Below, piece by piece: positions 15,711-59,915 of a stretch of DNA of 64,000 bases. Under the pieces are notes generated by a model that saw only the letters and a program-made list of their open reading frames with translations, searched no databases and was not told where the DNA came from. Numbering within the stretch: the stretch's first letter is position 1; each line of letters starts with the position of its first letter. The stretch spans positions 256,172 to 320,171 of the forward strand of contig JACRDQ010000030.1 in assembly GCA_016218545.1 (NCBI GenBank), in the 5' to 3' direction. The DNA comes from Elusimicrobiota bacterium (GTDB lineage Bacteria; Elusimicrobiota; Elusimicrobia; UBA1565; UBA9628). Both the position numbers and the translations under genes were made by a program.

Positions 15711-15839
15711 ATGGCAAAAATACCCGGGAAAATGGGGAAAAGCCCGCCGGGTCGGGAAAAACATGATTTCCGTCATTTGAATTAAACGTCCCAAACGGAT
15801 AAAATATGTTTTGCCCTTGAGTTCTTCCGGGGCCTTCCA

Positions 15840-16805: not shown

Positions 16806-17002
16806 TGGGCTACGCCGACCTCATCCGGCGGGCCTGGCGGACCGGGCGCTTCGCCGCCTCGGTCCGGTCGTCCGGGAAGAAGGGCGCCGCGGGCGTCCGT
16901 CCCGGGGAGAGCCGCGGCTCCATCCGCGGCGAGATGGAAGAGATCGTCCGCCGCGAGTCCGCCGACGCGCTCGGCTTCCTCGCGCCGCGCGGGGAGGGAA
17001 TC

Positions 17003-40666: not shown

Positions 40667-40742
40667 GGGGGCTCCTTGTCCGACCCTCTCATTATAGGAG
40701 CGAGAGGAGGGTCCCGTCAATGACGCCGGACACGTCCGGGGG

Positions 40743-40830
40743 CTAGTCCTTGCGGAACAGGGCCAGCCAGGAGACGGTCACGATGGGGATCACGGACGCG
40801 GCCAGGAGCGCGATGGTGCGCCAGGTCATG
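40743..40830 (-). CDS. Possible 29-aa single-TM micropeptide (MTWRTIALLAASVIPIVTVSWLALFRKD)
   Basis: A small ORF 3 nt downstream of the BON gene stop. Hydrophobic helix with a polar tail. Confidence 0.25.
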
Positions 40831-41198: not shown

Positions 41199-43493
41199 AT
41201 GACGATGAGGATCCTGCTGGCCACCCGGAACCGCCACAAGGCGCGGGAGCTCGCGGCCATGACCGCGGGCAGCGGCGTCGCGTTCGCCCTGCTCGACGAG
41301 TTCCCAGCGTTCCCCGAGACCGTCGAGGACCTCCCCACCGTGGAGGGCAACGCCTCCAAGAAGGCCCGTGAGGCGGCGCTGCGCCTCAAGATGTGGACCT
41401 TGGCCGACGACACGGGGCTCGAGGTCGAGGCGCTCGGCGGGGCTCCCGGCGTCAGAGCCGCGCGCTTCGCGGGCCCGGGCTGCACCTACGCGGACAACAA
41501 CGCCAAGCTCCTCGCCTCCCTCCGGGGGGTGGAAGGTCCGCGCCGCAAGGCGGTCTTCCGCACGGTCATGGCCTTGAGCGATCCGGAGGGCAGGGTCACG
41601 CTCGAGGAGGGCAGGCTCCCCGGCTCCATCGCGTCCGGACCCAGGGGTTCGGCCGGCTTCGGCTACGACCCGCTCTTCCTCGTGGAGGACACGGGCCGGA
41701 CCCTGGCGGAGCTCTCCGACGAGGAGAAGAACCGGGTGAGCCACCGGCGGCGCGCCATGGAGAGGATGCTCCCTCACCTGGCGCGCGTCGCGGCCCTGGG
41801 GCTGGCGCTCCTCTGCTCCTGGACCGCCCCTGCCGCGGCGGGGCGGACCGAGCCGGGGCAGGAGACGATCTGGGACCAGATCATGGCGACCCAGGCCAAC
41901 CGCGGGATGCGGGCCGGGACCCGGCACATGGACGCGCAGCAGTATGACCTGGCCGAGGCCGAGTTCGCCAAGGCCGTGCACTCCAGCCCCAACGACGCCA
42001 ACGCCCACATGCTCCTGGGCGCCGCCTACTACTGGCGCGGCAAGGTGGACATGGCTCTCGGGGAGTTCCGCAAGGCCATCGAGCTCGACGACCGCAACGC
42101 CCAGGCCTGGATGCTCCTGGGCATCGCCATGGCCTGGAAGGGGGAGGCCCTGCCCGCGTACGAGGCGTTCCGCAAGGCGGGCGAGCTCGACGGCGCGCGC
42201 GCCGACATCCAGATGAACATGGGCTCGATCCTGGAGACCATGGGGCGCAACCAGGAGGCCCTCGGCCACTTCCGCAAGGCCGTGAACCTCGAGCCCACGC
42301 ACCCGCTCTACCATTTCCAGCTGGGCATGCTTTACCGGAGGCTCGGCCGCGACGGGGACGCCATCGAGTGCATGAAGGACGCCCTCAAGCTCTACCCGCA
42401 GTACGAGGACGCCCTCCTCGAGTTGGGGGCCGCCGAGGAGCGGCTGGGCCAGGACAAGGCCGCGTCGCACAGCTTCCGGAAGGCCGTCTCCCTCAAGTCG
42501 AAGGACGCGGTCGCCCGGTTCCGGCTGGGCAGACTCCTGCTGCGCGCCGGACAGCGGGCCGAGGCGCGGTCCGTCTTCTCCGACGCCTTCCACCTCACCC
42601 CCGAGGGCGAGGGGGGCGGCCTTCAGCTCTCGGTGGCCTATACCGGGGGCAAGAAGAAGCTCGCGGCCGGGGGCGGCGGGGGCTCCCCCTCGGGCTCCCA
42701 GCCGCCCGGGGAGCCTCCGCCTGCCGACGACCCGCTCTCCGTCTTCGCGCGCAACCTCGAGCGCATCCCGCTCGAGCAGGGCGCGGTCATGAACGTGGAC
42801 GTCGCCATGGTCCCCAAGCCCAAGCTCACCAAGGCCGACGACATCGAGAGCCGCGCTTCTCTCAAGCGCGCCCTGGAGAAGGGGATGAAGCCCGAGCGCT
42901 CCTCCATGAAGCTGGTGCGGCGGGAGTACGACCTGCCCGCGGGGCCGGAGTCGGCCCGGCAGGCCCAGATCAAGAAGATCCTCAACGACCTCTCCGACGT
43001 GGTCAAGAGCGCGCCTCCGGACTCGGACGTGCGCCTGGGCATGAACCTGACCTACAAGCGCCTCACCGACGCCGGGGCCCGGCGCGGGGCGGCCGAGAGC
43101 GCGGCCAAGGTCTCCTTCCAGCCCCGGGAGGTCGGCAACGACATGGGGCTCTGGGTCATCGGCACGGGCTGGATGACCCTCGTCGAGGAGATGCTGCCCG
43201 AGGCCGGGGCCGAGCTCCCGCGGAGCGACGACTCGGACTGGTGGGTGGCCCTGGGCCTGGGCTACGCCACCCTCGGCGACGGCCAGCGCGCCATGACGGC
43301 CTTCGAGCACGCGCTCCGGCACGACGCCCGGCATGAGGTCGCCCTGCTCGGTCGGGGCGTGGCCGCGGTCATGACCGGAGACGAGGCTCGGGCCCTGGCC
43401 GACTACCGCCGGGTCCTCCAGCTCAACCCGGCCAACCGCGCCGCGGCCGAGGGGCTCAAGTGGCTCCTGCGGCCTGTCAGGAGGAAGCAGTGA
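41199..43493 (+). CDS. In-frame fusion: RdgB/Ham1 non-canonical NTP pyrophosphatase domain, then a hydrophobic segment, then a TPR-repeat domain
   Basis: N-terminus MRILLATRNRHKARE..FGYDPLF is RdgB. From MERMLPHLARVAALGLALLCSWTAPAAA a signal-peptide-like segment precedes multiple TPRs. No stop separates the two parts. Confidence 0.6.
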   Translation: MTMRILLATRNRHKARELAAMTAGSGVAFALLDEFPAFPETVEDLPTVEGNASKKAREAALRLKMWTLADDTGLEVEALGGAPGVRAARFAGPGCTYADNNAKLLASLRGVEGPRRKAVFRTVMALSDPEGRVTLEEGRLPGSIASGPRGSAGFGYDPLFLVEDTGRTLAELSDEEKNRVSHRRRAMERMLPHLARVAALGLALLCSWTAPAAAGRTEPGQETIWDQIMATQANRGMRAGTRHMDAQQYDLAEAEFAKAVHSSPNDANAHMLLGAAYYWRGKVDMALGEFRKAIELDDRNAQAWMLLGIAMAWKGEALPAYEAFRKAGELDGARADIQMNMGSILETMGRNQEALGHFRKAVNLEPTHPLYHFQLGMLYRRLGRDGDAIECMKDALKLYPQYEDALLELGAAEERLGQDKAASHSFRKAVSLKSKDAVARFRLGRLLLRAGQRAEARSVFSDAFHLTPEGEGGGLQLSVAYTGGKKKLAAGGGGGSPSGSQPPGEPPPADDPLSVFARNLERIPLEQGAVMNVDVAMVPKPKLTKADDIESRASLKRALEKGMKPERSSMKLVRREYDLPAGPESARQAQIKKILNDLSDVVKSAPPDSDVRLGMNLTYKRLTDAGARRGAAESAAKVSFQPREVGNDMGLWVIGTGWMTLVEEMLPEAGAELPRSDDSDWWVALGLGYATLGDGQRAMTAFEHALRHDARHEVALLGRGVAAVMTGDEARALADYRRVLQLNPANRAAAEGLKWLLRPVRRKQ

Positions 43494-43528
43494 GGGTCTT
43501 CAGGAAAGGCGCCGAGCTTCCCGGCAAC

Positions 43529-44899
43529 ATGGGTTCCTTCATCCGGCGCGTCCACTTCGTGGGCATCGGCGGGGTCGGGATGAGCGGCATCGCCGAGGTC
43601 CTGCGCAACCTGGGCTACGAGGTCTCCGGCTCGGACCTCAAGGAAACGGAGGTGACCCGCCGGCTCGCCGGGCTGGGCGTCACGGTGCGTCTGGGCCACG
43701 CCGCGTCCCACATCCGGGGCGCCGAGGTGGTGGTCGTCAGCTCCGCCGTGGGCCCGGACAACCCGGAGGTGGCCGCGGCCCGGGAGCAGGGCATCCCGGT
43801 CGTCCAGCGGGCCCTGATGCTCGCCGAGCTCGGCCGCATGAAGAAGACGGTCACCGTGGCCGGGAGCCACGGCAAGACCACCACCACCTCCATGGTCGCC
43901 ATGGCCCTGCGTTCCGCCGGGGCGGACCCGACCATGGTCGTGGGCGGGCAGATCAAGGACATCCGCTCCAACGCCCGCCTGGGCGTGGGCGACTACCTCG
44001 TGGCCGAGGCCGACGAGTCCGACGGGTCCTTCCTGCACCTCTCGCCCTTGGTGGCCGTGGTGACCAACGTGGACGACGACCACCTCGACTTCCACAAGAC
44101 CGTCGAGCGGCTCCGGGAGGCCTTCGCCGAGCATCTGCGCCGGCTCCCCTTCTACGGCGCCGCGGTGCTGTGCGCGGACGACCCTCCCCTCATGGCCCTG
44201 GCTCGCGGCCTCGACCGCCGCGTCATCACCTACGGCTTCGCGAAGTCCGCCCAGTGGCGGGCCGCGGACCTCAAGCTCGCGAGCGCGGGGAGTTCCTTCT
44301 CCGTGCTCTGCCGGGGCCGCCGCCTGGGGACGCTGCGCATGCGGGTGCCGGGAAGGCACAACGTGCTCAACGCCCTGGGCGCCCTGGCGGCCGGGAGCTT
44401 CCTGGGCCTGCCGTTCCGGCGCCTGGCCGCGGGGCTTGCGGAGTTCCGCGGCGTGGGCCGCCGCCTCGACGTCCTCGGCTCGGCCTCGGGCATCGTGTTC
44501 GTGGACGACTACGGCCACCACCCCACGGAGATCGCCGCCACCCTCGACGCCCTGCGCCTCTGGAAGGGCCGGCGCGTGGTGGTCTTCCAGCCGCACCGCT
44601 ACTCCCGGACCAAGCTCCTTGCCCGCCGCTTCGGACCCGCCTTCAAGGCCGCGGACCTCGTCTACGTCATGGACATCTACGCGGCCGGCGAGAAGCCCAT
44701 GCCCGGCGTGACCTCGAGGCTCATCCTCGACTCCCTGCGCCGGGCCCGGGTGCGCTGCGCCCCCTTCGTCTCGGCCCTGGACACCGCGCGCGAGCTGGCG
44801 GCGGGCGACGTCGTCTTGACCCTGGGGGCCGGAGACGTCTGGAAGATCGGCGAGGACCTCCTGCGGCGCAGCCGCAGCCGGTTCACCAGCCCGGTCTGA
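43529..44899 (+). CDS. murC: UDP-N-acetylmuramate--L-alanine ligase
   Basis: VHFVGIGGVGMSGIA, GSHGKTTTTSM, Mur ligase middle and C-terminal domains. Confidence 0.9.
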   Translation: MGSFIRRVHFVGIGGVGMSGIAEVLRNLGYEVSGSDLKETEVTRRLAGLGVTVRLGHAASHIRGAEVVVVSSAVGPDNPEVAAAREQGIPVVQRALMLAELGRMKKTVTVAGSHGKTTTTSMVAMALRSAGADPTMVVGGQIKDIRSNARLGVGDYLVAEADESDGSFLHLSPLVAVVTNVDDDHLDFHKTVERLREAFAEHLRRLPFYGAAVLCADDPPLMALARGLDRRVITYGFAKSAQWRAADLKLASAGSSFSVLCRGRRLGTLRMRVPGRHNVLNALGALAAGSFLGLPFRRLAAGLAEFRGVGRRLDVLGSASGIVFVDDYGHHPTEIAATLDALRLWKGRRVVVFQPHRYSRTKLLARRFGPAFKAADLVYVMDIYAAGEKPMPGVTSRLILDSLRRARVRCAPFVSALDTARELAAGDVVLTLGAGDVWKIGEDLLRRSRSRFTSPV

Positions 44900-44905
44900 C
44901 GGCCC

Positions 44906-45685
44906 ATGGGAGCCAGGCTCGGCCAGCATTTCCTCAAGGACCCGGTCGTGCGCGGCCGCATCCTCGCCGCGGCGCGCATCCAGCGGGGGGACTCGGTCGT
45001 GGAGATCGGCCCTGGCCGCGGGTTCCTGACCCGGGAGCTCCTGCGCCTCTCGGACCTGACCGCGGTGGAGATGGACGAGCGCCTGGCCGAGTCCCTGCGC
45101 CTGGAGTTGGGCGCGGAGAGCGGCCTGCGCCTCATCGCCTCCGACTTCCTCAAGGTCGAGCCCGCGGCCCTGGGCAGGCCTCCGCTCAAGTTCGTGGCGA
45201 ACCTCCCCTACTCGGTCGCCACGCCTATCCTGCAGAGGATCCTCTCCTGGGACTGCTGGAGCTCCGCGGTGCTCATGTTCCAGAAGGAGGTCGCCCTGCG
45301 CATCACGGCCGGGCCGGGCAGCCGCGACTACGGGCTCCTCACCCTGTCTGCGGCGATCAAGGCCGAGGCCGAGCTCGTGGCCGCGGCCCCTGCCGAGTCC
45401 TTCTCTCCCAAGCCCAAGGTGGAGTCCGCGGTGGTGCTCCTCAGGCGCAGGGCCGCGCCGCTGGTGAGGCCCGAGCGGGAGGACGGCTTCTTCCGCGTGG
45501 CGCGCGCCGCCTTCAGCCAGCGGCGCAAGACCGTCCTCCATCCCCTGTGCGGGGGCCTGGGCATCGGCCGGGAAACCGCCCTGGCCGCGCTCGAGCGCTG
45601 CGGCATCCCGTCCCGGGCCCGGGCCGAGGAGATCCCGCTCGAGGGCTTCCTTAAGCTGGCCGACATCCTGGGCCGACCCGGCTGA
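44906..45685 (+). CDS. rsmA: 16S rRNA (adenine1518/1519-N6)-dimethyltransferase
   Basis: LGQHFLKD, VVEIGPGRGFLT and NLPYSV motifs. Confidence 0.85.
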   Translation: MGARLGQHFLKDPVVRGRILAAARIQRGDSVVEIGPGRGFLTRELLRLSDLTAVEMDERLAESLRLELGAESGLRLIASDFLKVEPAALGRPPLKFVANLPYSVATPILQRILSWDCWSSAVLMFQKEVALRITAGPGSRDYGLLTLSAAIKAEAELVAAAPAESFSPKPKVESAVVLLRRRAAPLVRPEREDGFFRVARAAFSQRRKTVLHPLCGGLGIGRETALAALERCGIPSRARAEEIPLEGFLKLADILGRPG

Positions 45686-45725
45686 CGCCCGATTTTTCCC
45701 GTTCGTTCTTGATATACTCTGTGCC

Positions 45726-47462
45726 ATGGGCTTCCTCATCAGGGCGGAGTTCCCGGGCAAGCCGCCGGTCACCAAGGAGCTCGTCGAGGGCGGCCACCTC
45801 GTGCTCGGCCGCGCCAAGCAAGCCACCTTCAGGATCCCGGAGGACCTCGAGATGAGCCGCCTCCACGCCGAGGTCCTCGTGGACAACGGCCTGCTCGTGG
45901 TCCGGCGGAACCCCGAGTCCACCAACCCCGTGTTCCGCGACGGCCGCCCCATGGACGAGTTCGGCCTGGCTCCGGGGGAGAGCTTCCTCATCGGCAAGAC
46001 CAAGTTCACCTTCCTCATCCTCGACGCTCCGGCCGGGGCCGCTCCCGAGGCCGTGGCTCAGTCCCCGGCGGCAAAGAAGCCCTCCGGAGGGGGCGGCGCG
46101 GCCCCGGAGCACGTCGAGCTCCTGACCATGTCCGCCAAGGACCTCTACGCCATGGGCGACCCGGCGGGGAGGCTCAAGTACTCGCATCTCCTCGAGATCC
46201 CGGAGATCCTGCGCAAGCGCGACCGCAAGGACTCCTTCGCCCGCATCGCGGCCGTGCTCCGGGACTCCACGGACGGCGTCTTCGCGTGCGTCGTCACCGA
46301 GGAGGGCGGCGTGCTCGGCGAGGACCGCTCTGCCGGGGCGGTCCGGTACCAGCCGAGCAAGACCCTCATCCGGAAGGCCTGCGCCGAGGCCCCTCAGCCC
46401 ACGGTCTACTCGTGGTCCCAGCCCGCGGGAGAGGTCGCGACGCGGCAGGCCGGGCTCGACTGGGCCGTGTGCGCCGCGGCCCGCATCCCGCACGAGCCCT
46501 CCGTGGTCTTCTACGTGGCCGGGTCCCAGTCCTCGGCGGGCTCGGAGTCCCTCCAGCGCGAGCGCGCCCGTTTCGTGGGGCTCATCGCGGACATGGTCGG
46601 CCGGAGCATGGCCATGGACCGGCTGACCACCTGGGAGGGGCGCCTGGAGCGCTTCTTCGCCGGCCCGGTGGTGAACAAGATCCTGTCCTCGCCGGATCTC
46701 GGGGACATCGAGCCCAGGCTCGCGGTGAGCACCGTGATGTTCTTCGACATCCGCGGCTTCTCCAAGCGCACCGAGGAGAAGAACGAGGACATCCTCCAGT
46801 ACATCGGTGAGCTCCGGCGCGCCATGACGGCCATGACCGCCGTCATCCTCGAGGAGCAGGGCGTGGTGCTCCAGTACATGGGGGACGGCATCCTCGCCTG
46901 CTGGAACGTCCCGTTCCAGGACCTCTCGCACGTGGACCTGGCCTGCCGGGCGAGCCTTCGCATGGCGGAGGCCTTCTCCCGCCAGACCGGCGGCTGGCGC
47001 TGCGGCATCGGGCTCCACTCCGGGGAGGTCGTGGCCGGAGCCATCGGCTCGGAGCAGGTCTTCTCCTACGGGCTGCTGGGCGCCACCGTGAACCAGGCCT
47101 CCCGCGTGGAGGGCATCACCAAGGCCCTCGGCGTCGGGATCCTGGCCACCGAGGACGTGGCCTCCAAGGTCTCCCCTTCCGTGGCCATGCCCGTGCCCGT
47201 GGGACGCTTCCGGCCGGCCGGGATGTCGTCCGCCATCGACCTCTTCGAGCTCACCCCGGCTCCGGGCGACTCCAGGCGCAGGGAAGCGTTCCAGGGAGGG
47301 GTGGCCGCGCTCAAGAGCGGCGACTTCGCCGCCGCGAGCCTGGCCTTCGGCGCCCTGCCTGCCGAGGACAAGCCCGCGGCCTATCTGCGGTCCCTGGCGG
47401 ACAAGCTCTCCAGGACCCCTCCGCGCGATTGGGACGGGGTCATCGAACTCTCCCAAAAATGA
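45726..47462 (+). CDS. FHA-domain protein fused to a class III adenylate/guanylate cyclase catalytic domain
   Basis: FHA: LVLGRAKQATFRIPEDLEMSRLHAEV..NPVFRDG. Cyclase: VMFFDIRGFSKRTE..YMGDGILACW..GLHSGEVVAGAIGSE..YGLLGATVNQASRVEG. Confidence 0.8.
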   Translation: MGFLIRAEFPGKPPVTKELVEGGHLVLGRAKQATFRIPEDLEMSRLHAEVLVDNGLLVVRRNPESTNPVFRDGRPMDEFGLAPGESFLIGKTKFTFLILDAPAGAAPEAVAQSPAAKKPSGGGGAAPEHVELLTMSAKDLYAMGDPAGRLKYSHLLEIPEILRKRDRKDSFARIAAVLRDSTDGVFACVVTEEGGVLGEDRSAGAVRYQPSKTLIRKACAEAPQPTVYSWSQPAGEVATRQAGLDWAVCAAARIPHEPSVVFYVAGSQSSAGSESLQRERARFVGLIADMVGRSMAMDRLTTWEGRLERFFAGPVVNKILSSPDLGDIEPRLAVSTVMFFDIRGFSKRTEEKNEDILQYIGELRRAMTAMTAVILEEQGVVLQYMGDGILACWNVPFQDLSHVDLACRASLRMAEAFSRQTGGWRCGIGLHSGEVVAGAIGSEQVFSYGLLGATVNQASRVEGITKALGVGILATEDVASKVSPSVAMPVPVGRFRPAGMSSAIDLFELTPAPGDSRRREAFQGGVAALKSGDFAAASLAFGALPAEDKPAAYLRSLADKLSRTPPRDWDGVIELSQK

Positions 47463-49192
47463 CGACGGCGCCCGTCGCGGCCCTGCGCTCGAGGACACTC
47501 CGGCTCGGCCTCGTCCTCTCTTGCGCGGCCCTGCTCCCCGCTCCCTGCTCCGCCGGGTGCGACCAGGGCTCCTACGACGCGGCGTACGCCGCCTGCAACG
47601 CCGATCCCCCGGGGCCCCAGTGCGCCCCGGTCTACAACGAGATGCGCTCCGCCTGCGAGAGCGACCTCCAGAAGGCGATCGCGGCCGTGGACAAGTCCAA
47701 GCCCGCGGATAGGGACGCTGCGGTCGAGGCATTGAGCGACCTCCGCATGAAGATCTACTACGACATGGGCGGGTTCAAGAGCTACGGGATCCTGGGAAGC
47801 TCCGGCAAGCACATCACGGTCGGGGGAGAGAGCTTCAACACTTATGCGAACGAGGCGTGGGAACGCGCGGAGAAGACCTTCGACGATCACGGCTACGAGG
47901 TCTCCGATGACGGCGAGATCCTGGCCGGGCCCGGGGACGGCGAAGAGGCCGGCGACCCTGCCGCGGACCAGAAGCCCGGCGCCGCCGGCAAGCCTCGGTC
48001 CGGGGCGCAGGGTGAGGCCCAGCCGCGGAAGGAGCGGGTCGAGGCTCTGCTCGACCAAGGCAAGGCCGCGGAAGCCGAGGACCTGCTCGACGAGCTCCTG
48101 CAAGACGACCCGGAGAACCCGGAGCTCCTCGCCATGAGGTCCGTGGCCAGGCTCAACCAGGAGGACAAGTCGGGCGCTCTCTCGGATGCCAAGGCCTCCC
48201 TGAAGTCCGACCCTGAGAACAAGACCGCCCAGGAGGTGAAGGATTTCATCGAGCTCACGGGCAGAGCGGCCGGGGTGAGCCTCAAGCTCAAGGGGCCCAA
48301 GTGGGAGTCCAAGGACATGGGCTCCAGGTTCGACGGGAGCGGCGGGGACGGGGCGGCCGGAGCCGGCGGCAAGCTCATGGCCGGCGGAGGCTGGCGGAGC
48401 GGCGGCCCGAGCCGGGCCTCGGGCGGAGGCTACGACGCGGTGGACGCCGGCGGGTCAGGCTGGTCCGCCACGGGGAGCGGTCCCGGAGCAGGGGCCTATG
48501 CCCCGGGCGCGCAGGCCACCCTGCCCATGTCCCAGGGCCTGACCGGCTCGCAGGTGCTCGTGCGCGAGGCGCGCAAGAAGCTCAGGCTCGGGGACCTGAG
48601 CGGCGCCTTCCTCGAAGCCGCCCGCGCCCTGCAGGCCGACGCCAGGAACCCCGCGGCCTGGACCACGCGCGCCGCGGTGTCGAACAAGCTCAAGAACTTC
48701 GACGCCGCCATCGGCGACGCGACCGAGGCTTTGAAGCTCGAGCCCAAGAACGTGCCCGCCATGCTCGAGCGGGGCTACGCGCAGTACAACATGGGGAACC
48801 TCACGGCCGCGCTCGAGGACATCGGCTCAGCCATCAAGATCGAGCCCATGAACGCCCTGGCCTACCTCTACCGGGGCATGATCTTCGAGAAGATGACCCG
48901 CTACACCGAGGCCCTCGCGGATTACGAGACCGCGGCCCGCCTGGACCCCACGCTCCGACAGTTCTGGGAGGATGCCAAGACCCGCCTCCTGGGCGGCGGC
49001 AAGGGCAAGGGCAAGACCGGCCCAGGGGCGCGGAGGCCCGGCCGCGGGCTCTTCTGGCTCATCCCCTCGGGCCTCTCCCTGCTCATCCTCGTCATCTTCA
49101 TCCGCAGGAGGCTCAAGGAACGTGCGCAGCCGGCGGCGGAACCCGAGCCTCCGGCCGGGGCCGAGCCCGGCCAGCCCAAAGACGAGTCCTGA
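47459..49192 (+). CDS. Membrane-anchored TPR protein with a signal peptide, Cys-rich N-module, TPRs and a C-terminal TM helix (paralog 1 of 3)
   Basis: The ATG overlaps the cyclase stop (ATGA). C-terminal TM LFWLIPSGLSLLILVIFIRRR. Confidence 0.7.
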   Translation: MTTAPVAALRSRTLRLGLVLSCAALLPAPCSAGCDQGSYDAAYAACNADPPGPQCAPVYNEMRSACESDLQKAIAAVDKSKPADRDAAVEALSDLRMKIYYDMGGFKSYGILGSSGKHITVGGESFNTYANEAWERAEKTFDDHGYEVSDDGEILAGPGDGEEAGDPAADQKPGAAGKPRSGAQGEAQPRKERVEALLDQGKAAEAEDLLDELLQDDPENPELLAMRSVARLNQEDKSGALSDAKASLKSDPENKTAQEVKDFIELTGRAAGVSLKLKGPKWESKDMGSRFDGSGGDGAAGAGGKLMAGGGWRSGGPSRASGGGYDAVDAGGSGWSATGSGPGAGAYAPGAQATLPMSQGLTGSQVLVREARKKLRLGDLSGAFLEAARALQADARNPAAWTTRAAVSNKLKNFDAAIGDATEALKLEPKNVPAMLERGYAQYNMGNLTAALEDIGSAIKIEPMNALAYLYRGMIFEKMTRYTEALADYETAARLDPTLRQFWEDAKTRLLGGGKGKGKTGPGARRPGRGLFWLIPSGLSLLILVIFIRRRLKERAQPAAEPEPPAGAEPGQPKDES

Positions 49193-49213
49193 AGCATTTG
49201 ATATGATGGTCGG

Positions 49214-50872
49214 ATGAGGTCCCAAGCCTCGTTGTTTTCAAGGGGCTCCCTTGCTGGACTCATCTCCGCGTGCGTCGTCGTGCCTTCTTTCGCGGCGACC
49301 TGCACCATGGAGAGCTTCTCCTCGGCCATCGGCTGCGTGTGCAGGCGTGACCTCCCGCCGGGATGGGAAAAGCCCTTCGATTGCACGGCCTGCCTCCAAG
49401 GGGTCGAGCGGCTTCGGGCCGCGTGCGAGCAGGAGTACGAGCAAGGCATGGAGAAGGTCCAGGCTGCCAAGACCCCCGCGGAGGTCGAGGCTCAAAAGGA
49501 GGACCTCTATCGGGTTGCTGAGGTCGCGAGCAGAGGCGACATCGCCTTTGACGGCCGCCAGGAGAGGGGGAGGGTCCTCGAGGACCTTGTGCTGGTGGAG
49601 AGCATCCCCGAGCCCCATCAGGTCACGGCGGACATCAACGATATCCAGCAGGGGTTGGTGGATAAGGCCAAGAACGCCCAAGTGGAAGACAAGAAGATCG
49701 AGCCGGACCCCAGCGCTCTTGAAGCGAGGAATAAGAGCCTGGGCTTGGCCATGGACTTCCTGGGGGGGGCGAACATCGCCTTGGGCGGCAAGGATTCCGA
49801 CGGCGCGGTGGAGAGGACCGAGGCGGAGAGGACCGAAGCCGTGAGGACGGAGCAGGCCAAGAAGGACATGGAGGCGGGAAACTCCGAGGCTGCCGAGAAG
49901 TCCGTTGACCAGGCCCTGGCCTCGAACCCTAAGAACCGCGAGGCCCGCGAGGTCCGGGCCCTGGCGCGGATGAACCAGGGCAAGAACGAGGAGTCTCTCG
50001 CGGACGTCCATGAACTGCTCAGGCAGGATCCCAAGAACCAGGTCGCGCTCGACATGAAGACCTACATCGAGTCCTCAGGCCGCCTGGCAGGCAAGACCCT
50101 GAGTCTCAAGAGGCCTGATTTCGGAGGCCATGCCTCGAGAGAGGGTCTGGAAGCGGGTCTTGCCGCTGCCCTGCCTGGCGCCGAGGGCCGTTCTGGCCCT
50201 GGCACGGCCGAGGACGCGGTCCAAGCCGGGGGCCGGTCCTACCGCGGCACCCTGCCCTTGTCGCAGGGGCAGACCCAGGCCCAGGTTCTGGCCAGGGGAG
50301 CCGCCAAGAAGCTCAAGATGGGAGACTTGAGCGCGGCCTTGCTCGAGGCCACGCGCTCCATCAGGGCGGACAAGGGGCATGCCCCGGCCTGGGCCCTGCG
50401 CGCGGCTGTCGCCAACAAGCTCGCCAGGTACGACGCCGCCCTGGCTGACGCGACCGAGGCCCTCAAGCTCGAGCCGGACAACGTGACCGCGCTCCTGGAG
50501 CGGGGCTTAGCCCAGTACGGCATCGCCAACTACGCGGCCGCGCTCGAGGATGTCAGCCGCGCCCTGGCGCTCGAGCCCATGAACGCCCTGGGCTACCTGT
50601 ACCGCGGCATGATCTTCGAGAAGCTCTCCCGGTACAGCGAGGCCCTGTCCGACTACGAGACGGCCGCGCGCCTGGACCCGACTCTGCGCCAGCTCTGGGT
50701 GGACGCCAAGGCGCGCCTCTCGACCGGCAAGGAGACCTCGGTCCGGCGGGGGATCTCCTCGGAGACCGTGGCCTGGCTGGCCTGCGCGGCAGCTCTGGCA
50801 TCGGCAGCAGGCCTTGCCGCGGCCCTGGTCGTGACGCGCAGGAGAGTCCGGGCAGAGGAGAGCCCCTCATGA
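49214..50872 (+). CDS. Membrane-anchored TPR protein (paralog 2)
   Basis: Same architecture as paralog 1. The conserved C-terminal block reads EPMNALGYLYRGMIFEKLSRYSEALSDYETAARLDPTLRQ, against EPMNALAYLYRGMIFEKMTRYTEALADYETAARLDPTLRQ in paralog 1. Confidence 0.7.
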   Translation: MRSQASLFSRGSLAGLISACVVVPSFAATCTMESFSSAIGCVCRRDLPPGWEKPFDCTACLQGVERLRAACEQEYEQGMEKVQAAKTPAEVEAQKEDLYRVAEVASRGDIAFDGRQERGRVLEDLVLVESIPEPHQVTADINDIQQGLVDKAKNAQVEDKKIEPDPSALEARNKSLGLAMDFLGGANIALGGKDSDGAVERTEAERTEAVRTEQAKKDMEAGNSEAAEKSVDQALASNPKNREAREVRALARMNQGKNEESLADVHELLRQDPKNQVALDMKTYIESSGRLAGKTLSLKRPDFGGHASREGLEAGLAAALPGAEGRSGPGTAEDAVQAGGRSYRGTLPLSQGQTQAQVLARGAAKKLKMGDLSAALLEATRSIRADKGHAPAWALRAAVANKLARYDAALADATEALKLEPDNVTALLERGLAQYGIANYAAALEDVSRALALEPMNALGYLYRGMIFEKLSRYSEALSDYETAARLDPTLRQLWVDAKARLSTGKETSVRRGISSETVAWLACAAALASAAGLAAALVVTRRRVRAEESPS

Positions 50873-53259
50873 ACCGCCGCCTGCTGCTGGCCTGCCTCAT
50901 GCTCGCCTGGGCCGGGACCGCCCGGGCCGAGTGCAGCAGGAAGGCCTACACGGAGATGAAGGACTGCGAGGTCACAGCCGCGGGGAGCCATGTCGTCAAG
51001 AATCCGGACGGCACCCAGACCACGGTGGCGGACTACGACAGCAGCGCGTGCCTGCGACTCGTGGGCGACGTGGCGGACGAGTGCGGCGAGGCCTATGACA
51101 AGGCCCTCGAGGTCCTCAAGACGGCCAAGACCGAGGCTGAGATCAGCGCAAGCGAGGCGAAGCTCAAGGAGATCGCGGACATCGTCAAGGACGTCAAGAC
51201 CATCAAGGGCGTCACTCAGGACCCGAAGAACCCGCTCATGCCCTTGTCCGAGTTGGCCGAGCTGGACACCAGCGTCATCCCGGACGCGGTCAACGCGGCC
51301 AAGGAACGCCTCAAGGCTCCAAGCGTCGGCGGAACCCCTGACCCCAACGCGGTCCCTGGCCCGGCGCTGCCGCCGGTCCAGCAGGTCAGGGACCTCATCG
51401 AGGATGGGGACACCGCGGCCGCCCTGGACAAGCTCGACGGACTCATCGGGCCCGGCACCCAGGACCCGGACCTTTTCTCCATGCGCTCCTGGGGCCTGGC
51501 CAGATCCGGGGACCGCGCGGCCGCGCTCAGGGACGCGGAGGCTGCGCTCCAGCTCGACCCGAAGAACGAGCTCGCGGGCCAAGTCAAGGCTTACCTGGAG
51601 TCAGCGGGGAGCATGGGCAAGTCCAGGGTCGAGCTCAAGGCCCCGGATTTCTCGGGCCTCTCGTCCTCGAAGGGCAAGGACTCCTCGGCATGGCTCCAGG
51701 AGGGAGGGGCCCCTTCCGGAGGAGAGTGGATGTGGGGGAGCGGAGGAGCGGGCGCTCCGCCCAGGCCCGGGGGCGCCGCGGCCCAGGCCGCAGGCGCGGT
51801 CGGGCCGGCCGAGCCGCTGCTCAAGAGTTCCATGGCGAAGTTCCGCGTGGGCGACCTCAACGGAGCCCTCCTCGACGCCACGCGCGCGCTCCAGGCGGAC
51901 AAGTCCGACCTTCGGGCCCGGGCCATCCGGGCCGCCGTGGCCAACCGCCAGAAGAACCACGAGGGCGCGCTCTGGGAGGCGGGGGAGATCCTCAAGACCC
52001 ATCCCAACAACGTCCCGGCCTACCTGGAGAAGTCCCTGGCCGAGTACGGGCTCCTCCAGTACGACGCCGCGCTCGCCGACGTCGCGACCGCGTCCAAGCT
52101 CGACCCTTCCAATGCCCTGGCCAGGGTGTATGAAGGCATGATCCTCGAGAAGACCGGACGGGATGCAGAGGCGTTCGCGGCCTACGAGAGAGCGGCCGGG
52201 CTCGACTCCGGCATGGCCCGCTGCCTTGCGGACGCACGCAGCCGGCTGGAGCCCGGAGAGGCTCCGCAGGGCTTCGACTGGAAGAGACTGGCGCGTTGGG
52301 GCGGGCCCGTCGGCCTGGCCCTGGCTTTCGTCATCACCGGCGCTTGGTGGCGCTCCTCCGGCCCGGGCGCTGCTGCGGCGGGGGCAGGGACCGCGCCCCA
52401 GTCCTTTCCGGCGCGCGCAGCGGAGGGCCTGCGGACCTCAGCGGCCACGGTGGCCCAGGCTCCGGAGGGGGCCCTGCTGGCCGGGACGTACCGCGTGGTG
52501 CGGGAGCTGGGCAGCGGAGGCATGGGCGAGGTCTACGAGGCCGTCGACGAGAAGCTCCAGCGGTCCGTGGCGCTCAAGCGTCTCAAGAGGCAGGCCTATG
52601 CCTCGCCGGAGCTCAGGGACCGCTTTTTGAAGGAGGCGCGGCTCGTGGCCAAGCTGCGCCACCCGCACCTGGCCGAGATCTTCACCGTGGCCGGGGACGA
52701 GGAGCTCTACCTGGTCTTCGAGCTCGTGCAGGGAGAGGCCCTGGACAAGACCCTGTCTCGGCGCGGCCGCCTGGGGCTCGACGAGGCCCAGAGGATCGTG
52801 GGCGAGGTCTGCTCCGCGCTCGAGTACGCGCACGACGAGCATGTCATCCACCGGGACCTCAAGCCCTCCAACATCATGTTCGACGGCGAGGGCCGCGCCA
52901 AGGTCATGGATTTCGGCATCGCGCACGAGGCGCGGGGCTCGGCCGACCTGACGCAGACCGCCGCGTGGGGCACGCCTCCTTACATGGCTCCCGAGCAGGA
53001 GGGGGGCCGCGTGGGCCGCGAGTCGGACCTCTACGCCCTTGCCGTGATGGCCTACGAGATGCTCACCGGCAGCCGTCCCTTCCCCGGCCCCTATTTCCTG
53101 GAGAAGAAGCTCAAGAAGCAATACCCGGCTCCCACCGCGGTCAACGGCACCCTGCCGAGGTCCGTGGACGCGTTCTTCGCCAAGGCCCTTGAACCCGAGC
53201 CGGAGAAGCGCTACCGCACCGCGGCCGAGTTCGCGGCCGCGTTCCGCGGCCTTGCTTGA
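50869..53259 (+). CDS. TPR ectodomain (paralog 3), TM helix, and cytoplasmic Hanks-type Ser/Thr protein kinase
   Basis: Kinase subdomains LGSGGMGEVY, VALK, HRDLKPSN, DFG and APE. The N-terminal half is homologous to the two preceding genes. Confidence 0.85.
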   Translation: MNRRLLLACLMLAWAGTARAECSRKAYTEMKDCEVTAAGSHVVKNPDGTQTTVADYDSSACLRLVGDVADECGEAYDKALEVLKTAKTEAEISASEAKLKEIADIVKDVKTIKGVTQDPKNPLMPLSELAELDTSVIPDAVNAAKERLKAPSVGGTPDPNAVPGPALPPVQQVRDLIEDGDTAAALDKLDGLIGPGTQDPDLFSMRSWGLARSGDRAAALRDAEAALQLDPKNELAGQVKAYLESAGSMGKSRVELKAPDFSGLSSSKGKDSSAWLQEGGAPSGGEWMWGSGGAGAPPRPGGAAAQAAGAVGPAEPLLKSSMAKFRVGDLNGALLDATRALQADKSDLRARAIRAAVANRQKNHEGALWEAGEILKTHPNNVPAYLEKSLAEYGLLQYDAALADVATASKLDPSNALARVYEGMILEKTGRDAEAFAAYERAAGLDSGMARCLADARSRLEPGEAPQGFDWKRLARWGGPVGLALAFVITGAWWRSSGPGAAAAGAGTAPQSFPARAAEGLRTSAATVAQAPEGALLAGTYRVVRELGSGGMGEVYEAVDEKLQRSVALKRLKRQAYASPELRDRFLKEARLVAKLRHPHLAEIFTVAGDEELYLVFELVQGEALDKTLSRRGRLGLDEAQRIVGEVCSALEYAHDEHVIHRDLKPSNIMFDGEGRAKVMDFGIAHEARGSADLTQTAAWGTPPYMAPEQEGGRVGRESDLYALAVMAYEMLTGSRPFPGPYFLEKKLKKQYPAPTAVNGTLPRSVDAFFAKALEPEPEKRYRTAAEFAAAFRGLA

Positions 53260-53278
53260 ACCACGACGGAGGATCGCC

Positions 53279-54802
53279 ATGAAAGAGACAGCCGAGAAGA
53301 ACGGGACCGCCGGGGGCAAGGACGAGTACGCCCCTCCCAAAGGGTCGGTCACCTCGCACGCGTGCGTGCTGGCCGGCCGCGACCTCGAGTATGAGGCGCG
53401 CGCCGAGTGGCTGGTGCTCCGCAAGAAGGACAAGCCGCACGCCGAGATGTTCCACATCGCCTATCTGGAGAAGGGCAAGGAGCCCGGGGCCCGGCCCGTC
53501 ACTTTCGTCTTCAACGGGGGGCCGGGCGCCGCGTCCGCCTATCTGCACATGGGAGCCCTGGGCCCCTCCCGGGTCGTGTTCGAGCCCGCGGGCTCGGCGC
53601 CCAAGCCTCCGATGCGGCTCGTGCACAACGACGAGTCCTGGCTCGCCTTCACGGACCTGGTCTTCATCGACCCCATCGGCACGGGCTTCAGCAGGATGAT
53701 CGACGAGGAGGACCTCCCGAAGAAGGGGGGCGCCGAGAAGGACGGCAAGGCAGCGGAGGAGAAGCGCGACGAGAAGGAGTTCTACAAGCTCAACCGGGAC
53801 CTCGAGTCCCTGGGCGAGTTCGTCTCCAAGTTCCTCTCCAAGCACAAGAGATGGGAGTCCCCGGTCTTCGTGGCCGGGGAGAGCTACGGGGGCTTCCGCG
53901 CCGCCTGCATGGCCAAGCGCCTGCAGGAGGGCTTCGGCGTGGGCTTGAACGGGGTGGTCATCATCTCCCCTGCCATGGAGTTCACCCCGCTCAACCCCAG
54001 CGACTACGACCTCCAGGCCTGGATGGACGTCTTCCCCACCATGGCCGCGGCCGCGTCCCTGCACGGCAGGTCCAAGCGGTTCGGGCCGGACCTGGGCGCG
54101 GAGGAGGTCGCGAGGGCCGCGGAGGAGTTCGCCTCCTCGAGGATGTACCGCCTGCTCGCCCATGGAGACGCGCTGGCCGAGGACGAGAGCAAGGCGATCG
54201 TCCGCGAGATGTCCGAGATCATCGGCATCCCCGAGGACTACCTGAGGGACGCCTCCGGCAGGATCGCCCACTGGACGTTCTGCCGCAAGCTCTTGAAGGA
54301 CCGCAACCGGGTCTGCGGGCTCTACGACGCCTCCATCACCGCGGTCAACCCCTTCCCGGACCGCGAATGGGAGTTCGGCCCCGATCCGACCCTCTCCGGC
54401 ATCGAGAGGGTCTTCGCCGCCGGGATCAACACGCACCTGAGGAAGAACCTGGCGCTCGACTCGGAGCGCGACTACCATCTGCTCAGCGAGGAGGTCAGCA
54501 AGTCCTGGCAGGACGACCGCCAGCAGCACTTCTTCATGAGGCAGATCGGCGCGACCGACGAGCTCCGCTACGGCATGGCCCTCAACCCCCACATGAGGGT
54601 CTTCATCACGCACGGCTTCTACGACCTCGTGACCCCGTGCTGCTCCTCGAGCAGGCTGGTCCGCCAGATGCGGCTCGACGAGTCCCTGAGGGAGAACCTG
54701 ACCTTGAGGCACTTCAGGGGCGGCCACATGTTCTACACCTGGGAGGAGTCTCGCAAGGCCTTCAGGGCCGCCATGGCCGCCTTCTACGCTTCCGCGGTCT
54801 AG
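53279..54802 (+). CDS. Peptidase S10 (serine carboxypeptidase)-like protein
   Basis: FVFNGGPGAASAYLHMGALGP resembles the S10 NGGPGCSS block, and VAGESYGGF the GESYxG nucleophile motif. GGAGG SD. Confidence 0.65.
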   Translation: MKETAEKNGTAGGKDEYAPPKGSVTSHACVLAGRDLEYEARAEWLVLRKKDKPHAEMFHIAYLEKGKEPGARPVTFVFNGGPGAASAYLHMGALGPSRVVFEPAGSAPKPPMRLVHNDESWLAFTDLVFIDPIGTGFSRMIDEEDLPKKGGAEKDGKAAEEKRDEKEFYKLNRDLESLGEFVSKFLSKHKRWESPVFVAGESYGGFRAACMAKRLQEGFGVGLNGVVIISPAMEFTPLNPSDYDLQAWMDVFPTMAAAASLHGRSKRFGPDLGAEEVARAAEEFASSRMYRLLAHGDALAEDESKAIVREMSEIIGIPEDYLRDASGRIAHWTFCRKLLKDRNRVCGLYDASITAVNPFPDREWEFGPDPTLSGIERVFAAGINTHLRKNLALDSERDYHLLSEEVSKSWQDDRQQHFFMRQIGATDELRYGMALNPHMRVFITHGFYDLVTPCCSSSRLVRQMRLDESLRENLTLRHFRGGHMFYTWEESRKAFRAAMAAFYASAV

Positions 54803-54826
54803 CCTGTGGTAGAATAGAGTTCGGAC

Positions 54827-56104
54827 ATGCGCGCGCTCCTGCTCTGCCTTGCCGGCTTCCTGGCCGGACCTGCCCTGGCCGCCGAGTGGCCGCCCGAGGT
54901 CCCGGAGTGGGCCAGGCTGCGCGTGACGGCGCCCAAGGCCGCGGGCTCCGAGTGTCCGCCCGGCTCGCCGCGCCGCAGGCCGGTCCGGACCCTGTCCGAG
55001 GAGCCCTCCTTCGAGGTCAAGGAGCTCAAGCCCTGGGCCGAGGTGCCCCTGCCCCAAGACGACCTGGCCGCGTCCTCGGCGGTGGAGGCGGCGGAGAAGA
55101 CCCGCGCCTACTGGGCCGCCAGGCCCGGAGACGAGAAGGTCGCAGTGGGAGGCCTGACCTACACCGCGGCGCACATGGTCCGGAGCTTCTCTGCCCTGGC
55201 CGCGCTGCTCTCCCAGGGCCTGCCGGCCAAGGAGCTCAAGGCGCGGCTCGAGCGGGACTTCGACGTGTACCAGGCGGTCAAACCCGACGGCGGCCTCTCA
55301 GGCACCATGACCGCGTACTACGACCCGGAGATCCCCGTCTCAGGCGTGGGCCAGGCCGGCGTGCCCATCCACGCCAGGCCCGCGGACCTCGTCCGGGTGG
55401 ACCCTGCCTCGGGCCTGTCCTTCGACTGGGGCAGGCCCGACGGTCACGGCGGGCTCGCGCCTCACGCCTCGCGCAGGGAGGTCGACGCGGGCGCGCTCGC
55501 GGGCCAGGGGCTGGAGCTCTACTCCACGAGGCACCCGACCGACCTCCTCAACCTCCAGACCGAGGGCTCGGGCTGGGGCGTGCTCCCGGGCGGCCGCAGG
55601 GTCCGCCTGGCCTTCAACGGCGCCAACGGCCACGTGTTCAAGTCCGTGGGCAAGACCCTCATCGACTGCGGCCTCCTCCCGGCCGGCACCGGCTCCTTCG
55701 CCATCCTCGACTATCTCAAGTCCCAGACCCTCGAGCGGGAGCTGGAGCTCGTGGGCTTCAACCCGCGCTACGTCTACTTCAAGGAGGTCGCCTCGACCGG
55801 CGGGCCATGGGGCGCCACCGGAGTCGAGCTCGTGGCCGGCCGCTCCGTGGCCTCGGACCCCAAGCAGGTGCGCCTCGGCCTGGCCGGCATCCTCGTGTCC
55901 CGCAAGCCGGTCGCGGCCGAGGACGGGACCTTCCAGGGCTTCTCGGACTTCACGCGCTTCGTCTTCACCCACGACGTGGGCTCCGCCATCCGGGGCCCGG
56001 TCCGGCTCGACGTGTTCTGGGGCCGCGGGGCCAAGGCCGAGTCCGAGGCGCACCGCATGCTGTTCCCGGGCAAGCTCACCATCATCGTCCTCAAGCAGCG
56101 CTAG
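54827..56104 (+). CDS. mltA: Membrane-bound lytic murein transglycosylase A
   Basis: Signal peptide. TAYYDPEIPVSG resembles the MltA domain. The C-terminal 3D domain has FVFTHDVGSAIRGPVRLDVFWG. Confidence 0.7.
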   Translation: MRALLLCLAGFLAGPALAAEWPPEVPEWARLRVTAPKAAGSECPPGSPRRRPVRTLSEEPSFEVKELKPWAEVPLPQDDLAASSAVEAAEKTRAYWAARPGDEKVAVGGLTYTAAHMVRSFSALAALLSQGLPAKELKARLERDFDVYQAVKPDGGLSGTMTAYYDPEIPVSGVGQAGVPIHARPADLVRVDPASGLSFDWGRPDGHGGLAPHASRREVDAGALAGQGLELYSTRHPTDLLNLQTEGSGWGVLPGGRRVRLAFNGANGHVFKSVGKTLIDCGLLPAGTGSFAILDYLKSQTLERELELVGFNPRYVYFKEVASTGGPWGATGVELVAGRSVASDPKQVRLGLAGILVSRKPVAAEDGTFQGFSDFTRFVFTHDVGSAIRGPVRLDVFWGRGAKAESEAHRMLFPGKLTIIVLKQR

Positions 56105-56307: not shown

Positions 56308-56955
56308 CTAGGGCTGCTGCGGAGCGGGCACGGGCGCGGAGACCTTGCGCAGGATCTCGTCGGCCTCGCGGTGGCTGTCGCGGATGTCGCGCTCGACGTC
56401 CGCGGAGTACCGGGAGATGTCCCAGGCCTCCATGGAGAAGCCCGCGCGGCGGATGTCCCACTCGGCCCAGCGGGCCTCGCTGGCCAGCCAGCCGATCTCG
56501 CTCTCGGTCCAGGTGAAGGAGTCCGTGAAGCGGCGGGCCGATTGGATCTGCCCCGGATCGGGGCGGGCCTGCATGGCGAGGCGTTCTGCGTCCATGCGCA
56601 CGCGCTGGACCGCCCACTGCAGGTCCCGGAGGGCCCACACCGCGCGGTTGAGGTCGTTGCGGAAGAAGGGGTCGTTGTTCGGCTGGCCCGGCTGGATGCG
56701 CTGGGCGCGGCGGCGCAGGTCCTGCAGGTCGGACTTCAGGCGCTGGGCCGTCCACTGGAAGCCGCGCACGTCGGAGGCGAGGCGGTCGAGGTCATAGGCG
56801 GCCTGGAGGTTCTTCGCCTCGATGCGTTCGGCCTTGGCGGCGAGGATGTTCGCGCGCAGTCCGGTCAAGGCGGCCTCGAAGCCCGGCAGGGCCGGGACCA
56901 CGGCGGCATGGGCCGAGCAGGTCAGGGATACGAGCAGGGTAGCGACGAGCATCAT
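56308..56955 (-). CDS. Hypothetical secreted protein
   Basis: MMLVATLLVSLTCSAHAA is a signal peptide. Its ATG overlaps the stop of the upstream kinase (ATGA). Confidence 0.5.
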   Translation of the reverse strand: MMLVATLLVSLTCSAHAAVVPALPGFEAALTGLRANILAAKAERIEAKNLQAAYDLDRLASDVRGFQWTAQRLKSDLQDLRRRAQRIQPGQPNNDPFFRNDLNRAVWALRDLQWAVQRVRMDAERLAMQARPDPGQIQSARRFTDSFTWTESEIGWLASEARWAEWDIRRAGFSMEAWDISRYSADVERDIRDSHREADEILRKVSAPVPAPQQP

Positions 56956-58145: not shown

Positions 58146-58267
58146 CTTCAGCAGTAGTGTGGGTCCCCTGACCCTCCCGCGACAGGGCCCATGGGCCCAG
58201 GAGCGGGTGGGACTTTGGTCCCAGGACCCCATCTTACCATATCCCGGGGCCGATGTTGTATAATCAT

Positions 58268-58293
58268 CCGCCGCCTCGTCCCGGCGGCGGACG
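58268..58293 (-). terminator. Stem-loop ccgccgcc/ggcggcgg immediately downstream of the GT9 gene stop, followed by an A/U-rich tract on the minus strand
   Basis: A perfect 8-bp GC stem with a 7-8-nt loop, then auGAUUAUACAACAU. Confidence 0.3.
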
Positions 58294-59331: not shown

Positions 59332-59347
59332 GGGGTGATTGTAACAA

Positions 59348-59911: not shown

Positions 59912-59915
59912 GGCC

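Follow-up and report, generated by a model that had tools for sequence, protein, structure and literature searches.

Genes encoding FHA domains cluster with genes encoding Ser/Thr kinases (PMC1262709), and mycobacterial PknB recruits the FHA protein GarA via its activation loop, as stated by the title of a study cited in PMC6213207. Links between bacterial Hanks-type kinases and cyclic nucleotides have so far been mostly anecdotal. Here, we analyzed a stretch of 64,000 nucleotides from an Elusimicrobiota bacterium (uncultured; contig JACRDQ010000030.1, positions 256,172 to 320,171; hereafter the window), in which a tightly packed gene cluster encodes an FHA-GAF-class III nucleotidyl cyclase and three tetratricopeptide repeat (TPR) proteins, the last of which ends in a Hanks-type Ser/Thr kinase. 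Every part is of a known family, and the arrangement appears to be new. In a literature search of incomplete coverage, descriptions were found neither of the FHA-GAF-cyclase family and its pairing with kinases nor of a family of TPR-transmembrane (TM)-kinases with kinase-less paralogs. The locus does not overturn known principles; its value would lie in offering biochemists a clearly bounded target in a phylum whose signalling has hardly been studied by experiment.

Several described systems resemble parts of this cluster. With the mycobacterial kinases PknB and PknA and their FHA partners, the window shares a kinase domain that is closest to PknA, PknB, and StkP, and an FHA fold that matches those of FhaA, GarA, and Rv1747. 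However, in the mycobacterial proteins the kinase domain is N-terminal and PASTA or other sensors are C-terminal, whereas the window protein shows the inverted order and a TPR sensor, and the mycobacterial FHA partners (GarA, FhaA, Rv1747) are not cyclases. The FHA-GGDEF cyclase DgcB of Bdellovibrio bacteriovorus is switched on when a phosphopeptide binds its FHA domain (PMC6733907). Its output domain is a GGDEF domain producing cyclic di-GMP, in contrast to the class III cyclase of the window; also, DgcB has no GAF domain, and the ligand of its FHA domain is its own N-terminal tail. To our knowledge, no conserved neighbouring receptor kinase has been described for DgcB. GAF-regulated class III cyclases such as CyaB1 and CyaB2 of Anabaena have in common with the window enzyme that a GAF domain precedes the class III domain via a long helix. 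These two enzymes reportedly carry tandem GAF domains that bind cyclic AMP (cAMP), together with a PAS domain, but no FHA domain, whereas the window enzyme has an FHA domain and a GAF domain that lacks a Pfam match.

For the receptor part, Planctomycetota and Myxobacteria contain lineage-specific expansions of Hanks kinases that cross the membrane once, with the kinase in the cytoplasm and TPR or WD40 arrays in the periplasm; their repeats lie at the C-terminus (PMC11032199). The window protein differs from these in its predicted order of signal peptide, TPR, TM helix, and kinase, and in the kinase-less paralogs encoded alongside. This order is the unusual point of the arrangement. In plants, receptor-like kinases and receptor-like proteins form pairs of a type I receptor kinase and ectodomain-TM paralogs lacking the kinase. 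The comparison with these pairs is one of analogy only, as the ectodomains are not homologous and hetero-oligomerisation of the window proteins is putative.

Gene module and kinase-cyclase pairing

The core of the cluster consists of four genes:

45726..47462, + strand: FHA-GAF-class III nucleotidyl cyclase, 578 amino acids; predicted to be cytoplasmic (no hydrophobic segment)
47459..49192, + strand: TPR1; predicted signal peptide, Cys-containing N-terminal module, TPRs, one TM helix (residues 530-548), and a short basic tail; no kinase
49214..50872, + strand: TPR2; same layout as TPR1, TM helix at residues 522-540; no kinase
50869..53259, + strand: TPR3-kinase; predicted signal peptide (MNRRLLLACLMLAWAGTARA), ectodomain of Cys module and TPRs, TM helix, and C-terminal Hanks kinase (predicted type I topology)

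Together with a gene for an S10-like serine peptidase directly downstream, these constitute the five co-directional open reading frames (ORFs) listed for 45726-54802 in a preliminary description of this DNA, all of which we recovered at the same coordinates on the + strand. The two overlaps reported there, at 47459 (start of TPR1 and stop of the cyclase gene) and at 50869, are real, and each is an ATGA of 4 nucleotides (nt). From the cyclase gene through a downstream gene encoding an MltA-type lytic transglycosylase, neighbouring genes either overlap by 4 nt or are separated by at most 24 nt. Judged by this spacing, on which the operon structure solely depends, the gene packing fits co-transcription, and the start/stop overlaps point to translational coupling. 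In a consensus scan of the region from 43 to 57 kb, no promoter-like sites were detected, and terminator-like sites occurred at the level of shuffled sequence.

Based on this linkage and on the domains described below, we consider it somewhat better than an even chance that the module converts an envelope signal into a cyclic-nucleotide signal via phospho-threonine docking. The pairing of the two enzymes beyond the window is central to this proposal. A homology search with the cyclase returned 315 proteins, including one of equal length and 100% identity (P0001) that an exact-sequence look-up did not report. Nearly all of those listed were ~560 amino acids long and could be aligned over their entire length, with identities as low as 42%. 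When one genome per species was scanned, 556 loci were confirmed and the best 80 kept; 70 of these contained full-length members of the cyclase family. The family is conserved over its full length, and its members come from no fewer than five phyla (Elusimicrobiota, FCPU426, Nitrospirales, Planctomycetota, and Acidobacteriota). A Hanks kinase gene directly adjoined the cyclase gene on the same strand in 34 of these 70 species-level loci. From the density of kinase genes in flanking sequence of ~1 Mb in total, about one such locus would be expected by chance, and the binomial P remains far below 1e-10 even if kinase genes are generously set at 5%, a value that overstates independence because the loci share phylogeny.

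The adjacent kinases displayed five architectures, namely (i) kinase-WD40, (ii) REC-kinase-WD40, (iii) kinase-FGE-sulfatase, (iv) kinase-dCache, and (v) cyclase-kinase-TPR, and were located either upstream or downstream of the cyclase gene. Because the neighbouring kinases vary in architecture and side, this pattern argues for a functional pairing of kinase and cyclase that arose repeatedly or was maintained, rather than for one inherited operon. The tie between FHA-cyclase and Hanks kinase that had been proposed for the window receives independent, though indirect, backing from this adjacency, with unrelated kinase architectures; that this particular kinase binds or phosphorylates the cyclase is a step that we infer. 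A widespread family combining FHA, GAF, and cyclase homology domains with a recurrent Ser/Thr kinase partner would represent a concrete candidate for a relay from phospho-threonine to cyclic nucleotides.

Among Elusimicrobia relatives of the window, the following loci contained the cyclase gene:

L005: cyclase 82% identical; whole cluster present
L006: cyclase 76% identical; cyclase, one kinase-less TPR gene, and TPR-kinase; no S10 gene
L086: cyclase 67% identical; cyclase, two TPR genes, and TPR-kinase; flanks changed, with TrkA_C upstream and neither S10 nor MltA matched downstream
L007: cyclase 68% identical; TPR3-type gene directly after the cyclase gene, followed by the contig end

The core of cyclase, TPR-TM, and TPR-TM-kinase thus recurs in L005, L006, and L086, down to 67% identity and despite changed flanks in L086; by this conservation it appears to be a signalling module of three to four genes that belongs to one Elusimicrobia subclade. 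Regarding the pair of Ser/Thr kinase and FHA-GAF-cyclase as defined in this analysis, the window, L005, L006, and L086 have the kinase in a co-directional cluster with TPR genes lying in between. The S10 peptidase had been counted as part of the island in the preliminary description, but two of the four complete related clusters (L006 and L086) lack it; it is present in L005. Membership of the S10 and MltA genes in the module was consequently rejected, as the S10 gene is missing in L006 and neither gene was matched in L086.

Two further loci of the cyclase family were noted. In L028, a 770-amino-acid ORF (1481-3790) beside an FHA-GAF-cyclase homologue of 48% identity carries a second Guanylate_cyc domain along with a Pkinase domain and, at the C-terminus, TPRs, i.e. 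a direct cyclase-kinase-TPR fusion. In L002 (7413-12167), the cyclase of which is 57% identical and has no adjacent kinase, a gene for a protein with a cNMP-binding domain lies four genes upstream, and the next gene on the downstream side encodes a stand-alone receiver domain. These two genes are candidates for effectors or regulators of the cyclase family.

Cyclase, TPR proteins, and kinase

The cyclase was modelled with AlphaFold on an alignment of 30 cyclase homologues (A2), giving a predicted local distance difference test (pLDDT) score of 82. The model displays five regions: the FHA domain (residues 1-100), a disordered linker (101-126), an alpha/beta domain with a long helix (~130-308), the cyclase domain (331-511), and a helical region (516-563). 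The structured regions correspond to the following features:

45726..46025, + strand: FHA domain, residues 1-100; phospho-Thr-binding motifs G28-R29, S44-x-x-H47, and N67
46113..46649, + strand: GAF-fold domain and long signalling helix, residues ~130-308, between FHA and cyclase domains; no Pfam match
46716..47258, + strand: cyclase homology domain, residues 331-511; predicted metal ligands D341 and D387, transition-state residues N456 and R460, substrate pair Q383/G449, assigned from A2 and an alignment with Cya2 (2w01)
47271..47414, + strand: conserved C-terminal helical hairpin region, residues 516-563; model helices 516-531, 534-542, and 549-563 with pLDDT >90; P550, W569, and G571 conserved

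The FHA domain was recognized by its fold, by a profile match that is borderline (Pfam, 4.8e-4; 20.9 bits against a cut-off of 20.7), and by its motifs. G28-R29, H47, and N67 are invariant in A2 (n = 30) and S44 is conserved in at least 90% of the sequences; GR, SxxH, and N constitute the accepted signature of phospho-threonine-binding FHA domains (PMC1262709). The following region adopts a GAF fold. For the class III cyclase domain (PF00211; Guanylate_cyc, 1e-12), the profile score exceeds the curated cut-off, the cyclase-homology fold is present, and the metal-binding and transition-state residues all lie in one chain, which would be competent to form a homodimer. Loss of the metal-binding Asp residues had been named beforehand as the point at which the cyclase assignment could fail; D341 and D387 are kept, as are N456 and R460, and all four are invariant in the 30 homologues, so that the cyclase looks catalytically competent. 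The earlier label of an FHA-cyclase was correct with respect to both of these domains but overlooked the GAF domain between them, a possible second regulatory input.

The nucleotide substrate is less clear-cut than the name adenylate cyclase, which the enzyme had been given, implies. The two substrate positions are occupied by Gln383 (in LQYMGDG) and Gly449 (in SYGLLGATVN), rather than by the Lys/Asp or Lys/Thr pair of adenylate cyclases. Across the family (A2), the first position is Q, E, D, H, or R, and the second G, T, or S. The nearest solved structure by sequence is that of the Synechocystis guanylate cyclase Cya2 (2w01), which has Glu and Gly in the same columns, in agreement with its described E-G substrate pair (PMC4215837). 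Compared with the pairs of guanylate cyclases (Glu/Cys or Glu/Gly), the Gly of the window enzyme matches Cya2 while the Glu is replaced by Gln; a few family members carry Glu or Asp. Further differences from Cya2 concern the Tyr that boosts its guanylate cyclase activity, the position of which is Ser in the VNQASR motif of the window enzyme, and the regulatory domains. By these residues, the window enzyme should not be named an adenylate cyclase. With its Gln/Gly pair and Cya2-like catalytic core, the family is a candidate source of bacterial cyclic GMP (cGMP) or of cyclases with relaxed specificity.

Pfam searches identified TPR families in the products of 47459-49192 and 49214-50872, and TPRs together with Pkinase in that of 50869-53259. 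As proposed in the preliminary description, the three proteins are paralogous: they align over their whole ectodomains, TPR2 and TPR3 being 41% and 35% identical to TPR1, respectively. In each of them, a signal-like hydrophobic stretch at the N-terminus is followed by Cys residues (almost all within the first ~70 positions), an isolated pair of TPRs near residues 200-260, a strongly conserved membrane-proximal TPR block (residues ~360-500), and one hydrophobic segment (TPR1, 530-548; TPR2, 522-540; TPR3, 478-494) preceding basic residues. The N-terminus of TPR3-kinase is signal-like and includes an ARA|E site. Hydropathy, the positive-inside rule, and the placement of Cys residues are consistent with the common layout described earlier (signal peptide, Cys N-module, TPRs, and C-terminal TM helix), i.e. 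with extracytoplasmic TPRs, a TM helix, and, in TPR3, a cytoplasmic kinase, although signal peptides and TM helices were called by simple hydropathy only. Within TPR3-kinase, the following features were assigned:

52300..52350, + strand: predicted TM helix, residues 478-494 (GGPVGLALAFVITGAWW); aligns with the TM helices of TPR1, TPR2, and homologues, hydropathy weaker
52489..53217, + strand: Hanks-type Ser/Thr kinase domain, residues 541-783; Pkinase 1e-50, 173 bits; all catalytic motifs

The kinase-less paralogs have kept the membrane-proximal TPR block and the TM helix, whereas their N-terminal halves have diverged. The near-identical block of TPR1 and TPR2 (EPMNAL.YLYRGMIFEK..RY.EAL.DYETAARLDPTLRQ) is present as previously noted. 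Recent gene conversion was rejected as its origin: third-position identity among identical residues was 0.58-0.89 (~0.7 on average), with no sharp boundary. Constraint at the protein level is the better reading of this pattern, and the block is possibly an interaction surface.

A pseudokinase, the second outcome considered beforehand, was not found. The domain matches PF00069 and retains the Gly loop (GSGGMG, 548), VALK (567), the alpha-C Glu, HRDLKPSN (661), DFG (681), and an activation loop with TQT...APE (from 695). Its best solved relatives are PknA, StkP, and PknB (1e-49 to 1e-43). The NCBIfam model PknB_PASTA (NF033483) scored 258.5 bits against a cut-off of 450, covering the kinase part only and with the order of domains inverted, and neither Pfam nor NCBIfam detected a PASTA or other peptidoglycan-binding domain in TPR3-kinase.

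A profile search with the ectodomain found only ~8 true homologues, all from Elusimicrobia. When the kinase domain was searched against 1.84 billion representatives, ~35 of the best 150 matches were proteins of 720-900 amino acids with the kinase at the extreme C-terminus (52-60% identity). Of nine such C-terminal-kinase matches sampled, eight carried N-terminal TPRs in the same places, which suggests that the TPR-TM-kinases are a family of their own. The ninth (P0230, 716 amino acids, kinase domain 53% identical to that of the window) has its kinase at the C-terminus and ankyrin repeats in place of the N-terminal TPRs.

In a tree of the ectodomains (rough neighbour-joining without bootstrap, all outgroups kinase-bearing), kinase-less proteins nested among kinase-bearing ones, and the kinase-bearing P0126 was sister to the TPR1 group. 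The preliminary description had assumed that only the third paralog acquired a kinase. Since the kinase-less forms nest within a wider TPR-TM-kinase family, it appears more likely that paralogs 1 and 2 lost the kinase than that paralog 3 gained it. Wherever the context is known, kinase-less TPR-TM paralogs occur only in cyclase-linked clusters. A receptor kinase whose predicted topology is inverted and eukaryote-like, encoded together with kinase-less paralogs, may serve as a simple system for the use of co-receptors or decoys.

Proposed relay and alternative explanations

The relay that we favour would comprise (i) a single-pass receptor Ser/Thr kinase with a periplasmic N-terminal TPR ectodomain and a cytoplasmic C-terminal Hanks kinase, (ii) one or two kinase-less receptor paralogs, and (iii) the cytoplasmic FHA-GAF-class III cyclase. 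Beyond gene linkage and intact residues, we infer each of its steps. A cue from the periplasm, in view of the TPR fold probably a protein or peptide and perhaps related to the envelope, would alter receptor association, in which the kinase-less paralogs could take part as co-receptors or decoys. The kinase would then autophosphorylate on Thr, either in the TQT activation loop or in the Thr-containing juxtamembrane linker. The FHA domain of the cyclase would dock on this phospho-threonine, by which the cyclase might be recruited, dimerised, or de-repressed, or made accessible to phosphorylation by the kinase. As a result, the output of cyclic nucleotide, cAMP or cGMP, would change. The GAF domain may provide a second input, through a small molecule or dimerisation. 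The cytoplasmic tails of the kinase-less paralogs were also considered as docking sites for the FHA domain and were rejected, as TPR1 has no Thr in its tail and the tails show no conservation.

In a wider version, the pair of Ser/Thr kinase and FHA-GAF-cyclase would be a general and hitherto undescribed bacterial relay from Ser/Thr phosphorylation to cyclic nucleotides, spread over five or more phyla with exchangeable sensor kinases. In the Elusimicrobia subclade of the window, it would be driven by a TPR receptor kinase of type I topology with kinase-less co-receptors, much like a pair of receptor-like kinase and receptor-like protein. Its product might be cGMP or mixed, given the Cya2-like substrate pair that is not Lys/Asp. 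We put this generalization forward tentatively and regard it as rather doubtful.

Several observations weigh against the relay. No Thr motif common to all juxtamembrane linkers was found in the alignment. About half of the family loci, notably those of Nitrospirales and most of Pirellulaceae/Fuerstiella, have no kinase in the available flanks, and the relatedness of the loci and the simple hydropathy calls mentioned above lessen the force of enrichment and topology. In the lineage of the window, the kinase is not the immediate neighbour of the cyclase, and it is C-terminal and PknA/PknB-like, in contrast to the N-terminal kinases paired with this cyclase family elsewhere. The TPR-TM-kinases of L085, L087, and L088, i.e. 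all three of those contexts that were read, stand alone without a cyclase. Finally, the metagenome-assembled genomes that contain L005 and L007 also hold a second FHA-GAF-cyclase paralog of ~50% identity (L017, 4865-9991, with L005; L010, ~11602-14889, with L007), the partner of which is a very large REC-kinase-WD40 or kinase-WD40 protein. Because this second cyclase has its own WD40 kinase, cross-talk or a different partner is possible.

These observations can also be read as those of neighbours without coupling, with the cyclase controlled by another kinase (e.g. of the WD40 type) or by a GAF ligand alone, the TPR receptor kinase acting on other substrates, and all of them sharing a housekeeping or envelope operon (Ham1-TPR, MurC, KsgA ... 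MltA). The N-terminal-kinase proteins that usually accompany the cyclase elsewhere, the solitary TPR-TM-kinases, and the second cyclases with kinases of their own (L017 and L010) would all agree with such a view. We nevertheless consider it unlikely, since the core of cyclase, TPR, and TPR-kinase is intact in L086 though both flanks differ, the start/stop overlaps suggest translational coupling, and the kinase-less TPR-TM paralogs are restricted, where context is known, to cyclase-linked clusters. The same change of flanks bears on a second view, according to which the TPR proteins serve in the periplasm as scaffolds for building peptidoglycan or the outer membrane, and the kinase regulates cell-wall enzymes like PknB or StkP, with the cyclase outside its output. 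MurC upstream and MltA downstream, further envelope genes nearby (Wzy_C, PMT_2, and GT9), the similarity of the kinase domain to PknA, StkP, and PknB, and a stand-alone family member (L085) adjoining BacA, a class A PBP, and alpha-2-macroglobulin would be in line with this role in envelope maintenance. Yet the protein lacks PASTA or other peptidoglycan-binding domains (the PknB_PASTA score being well below its cut-off), and in L086 the synteny with MurC, KsgA, and MltA is gone while the link to the cyclase is kept. As a replacement for coupling to the cyclase, this role seems very improbable; it would be compatible with such coupling and does not exclude it.

A different question is where the FHA domain binds. 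By analogy with DgcB (PMC6733907), the TPR3 kinase, or any kinase, might phosphorylate the cyclase itself, and the FHA domain might bind that site in cis or in trans and switch the cyclase dimer instead of docking on the kinase. Besides this precedent, the disordered 25-residue linker after the FHA domain would provide a possible location. However, the FHA domain begins at residue 1, which leaves no N-terminal tail, and the linker of the window enzyme (residues 101-126) has Ser residues but lacks Thr and shows no conservation across the family, making such a self-binding switch quite unlikely compared with docking on the kinase as proposed above.

Flanking genes

The core lies within a run of nine genes on the + strand (41199-56104) with gaps of at most 40 nt, in a window with a G+C content of ~70%. 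The remaining genes of this run are:

41199..45685, + strand: Ham1/RdgB-TPR fusion, MurC, and KsgA; co-directional upstream context, syntenic in L001/L005, L006, and L007, not in L086
53279..54802, + strand: S10-like serine peptidase; lacks a signal peptide and is not conserved in the module
54827..56104, + strand: MltA-type lytic transglycosylase; downstream context, signal peptide and hydrophobic N-terminus, MltA 1.4e-23 and 3D 8.4e-11 (Pfam)

For the S10 gene, the most likely start is ATG 53279, because GGAGG is located just upstream, and not TTG 53189, which opens the longest ORF. The Peptidase_S10 match (Pfam, 6.9e-19, 68.9 bits) covers only residues 52-232, corresponding to profile positions 21-180 of 420; visual inspection revealed GESYGG (residue 200), YDLVTP, and GGHMF motifs. 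An NCBIfam search yielded no family for the cyclase or for the S10-like protein. In L006, the MltA homologue is split over two overlapping ORFs (15663-16905), due to either a frameshift or an assembly error.

The first gene of the run (41199-43493, + strand) is a single ORF of 764 amino acids, in which a non-canonical NTP pyrophosphatase domain (residues 5-191) is joined to a long TPR protein. The two parts are separated by a signal-like stretch of moderate hydrophobicity (ARVAALGLALLCSWTAPAAAG). The ORF may give rise to one protein or to two in-frame products. The fusion was also called in the relatives L001 (768 amino acids), L006, and L007.

Downstream of the cluster, a block at 56952-60611 comprises genes for a REC-HisKA-HATPase hybrid kinase, a GT9 heptosyltransferase, (EF-P), and a HAD hydrolase. 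This block recurs in L087 (6299-10011), where it lies a few kb from the stand-alone TPR-TM-kinase P0174; on its upstream side, L087 is truncated by the end of the contig. Upstream of the cluster, on the - strand (38537-40777), a protein of 746 amino acids with a C-terminal FGE-sulfatase domain is encoded; a domain of this kind is fused to cyclase-adjacent kinases in Phycisphaerae (L043).

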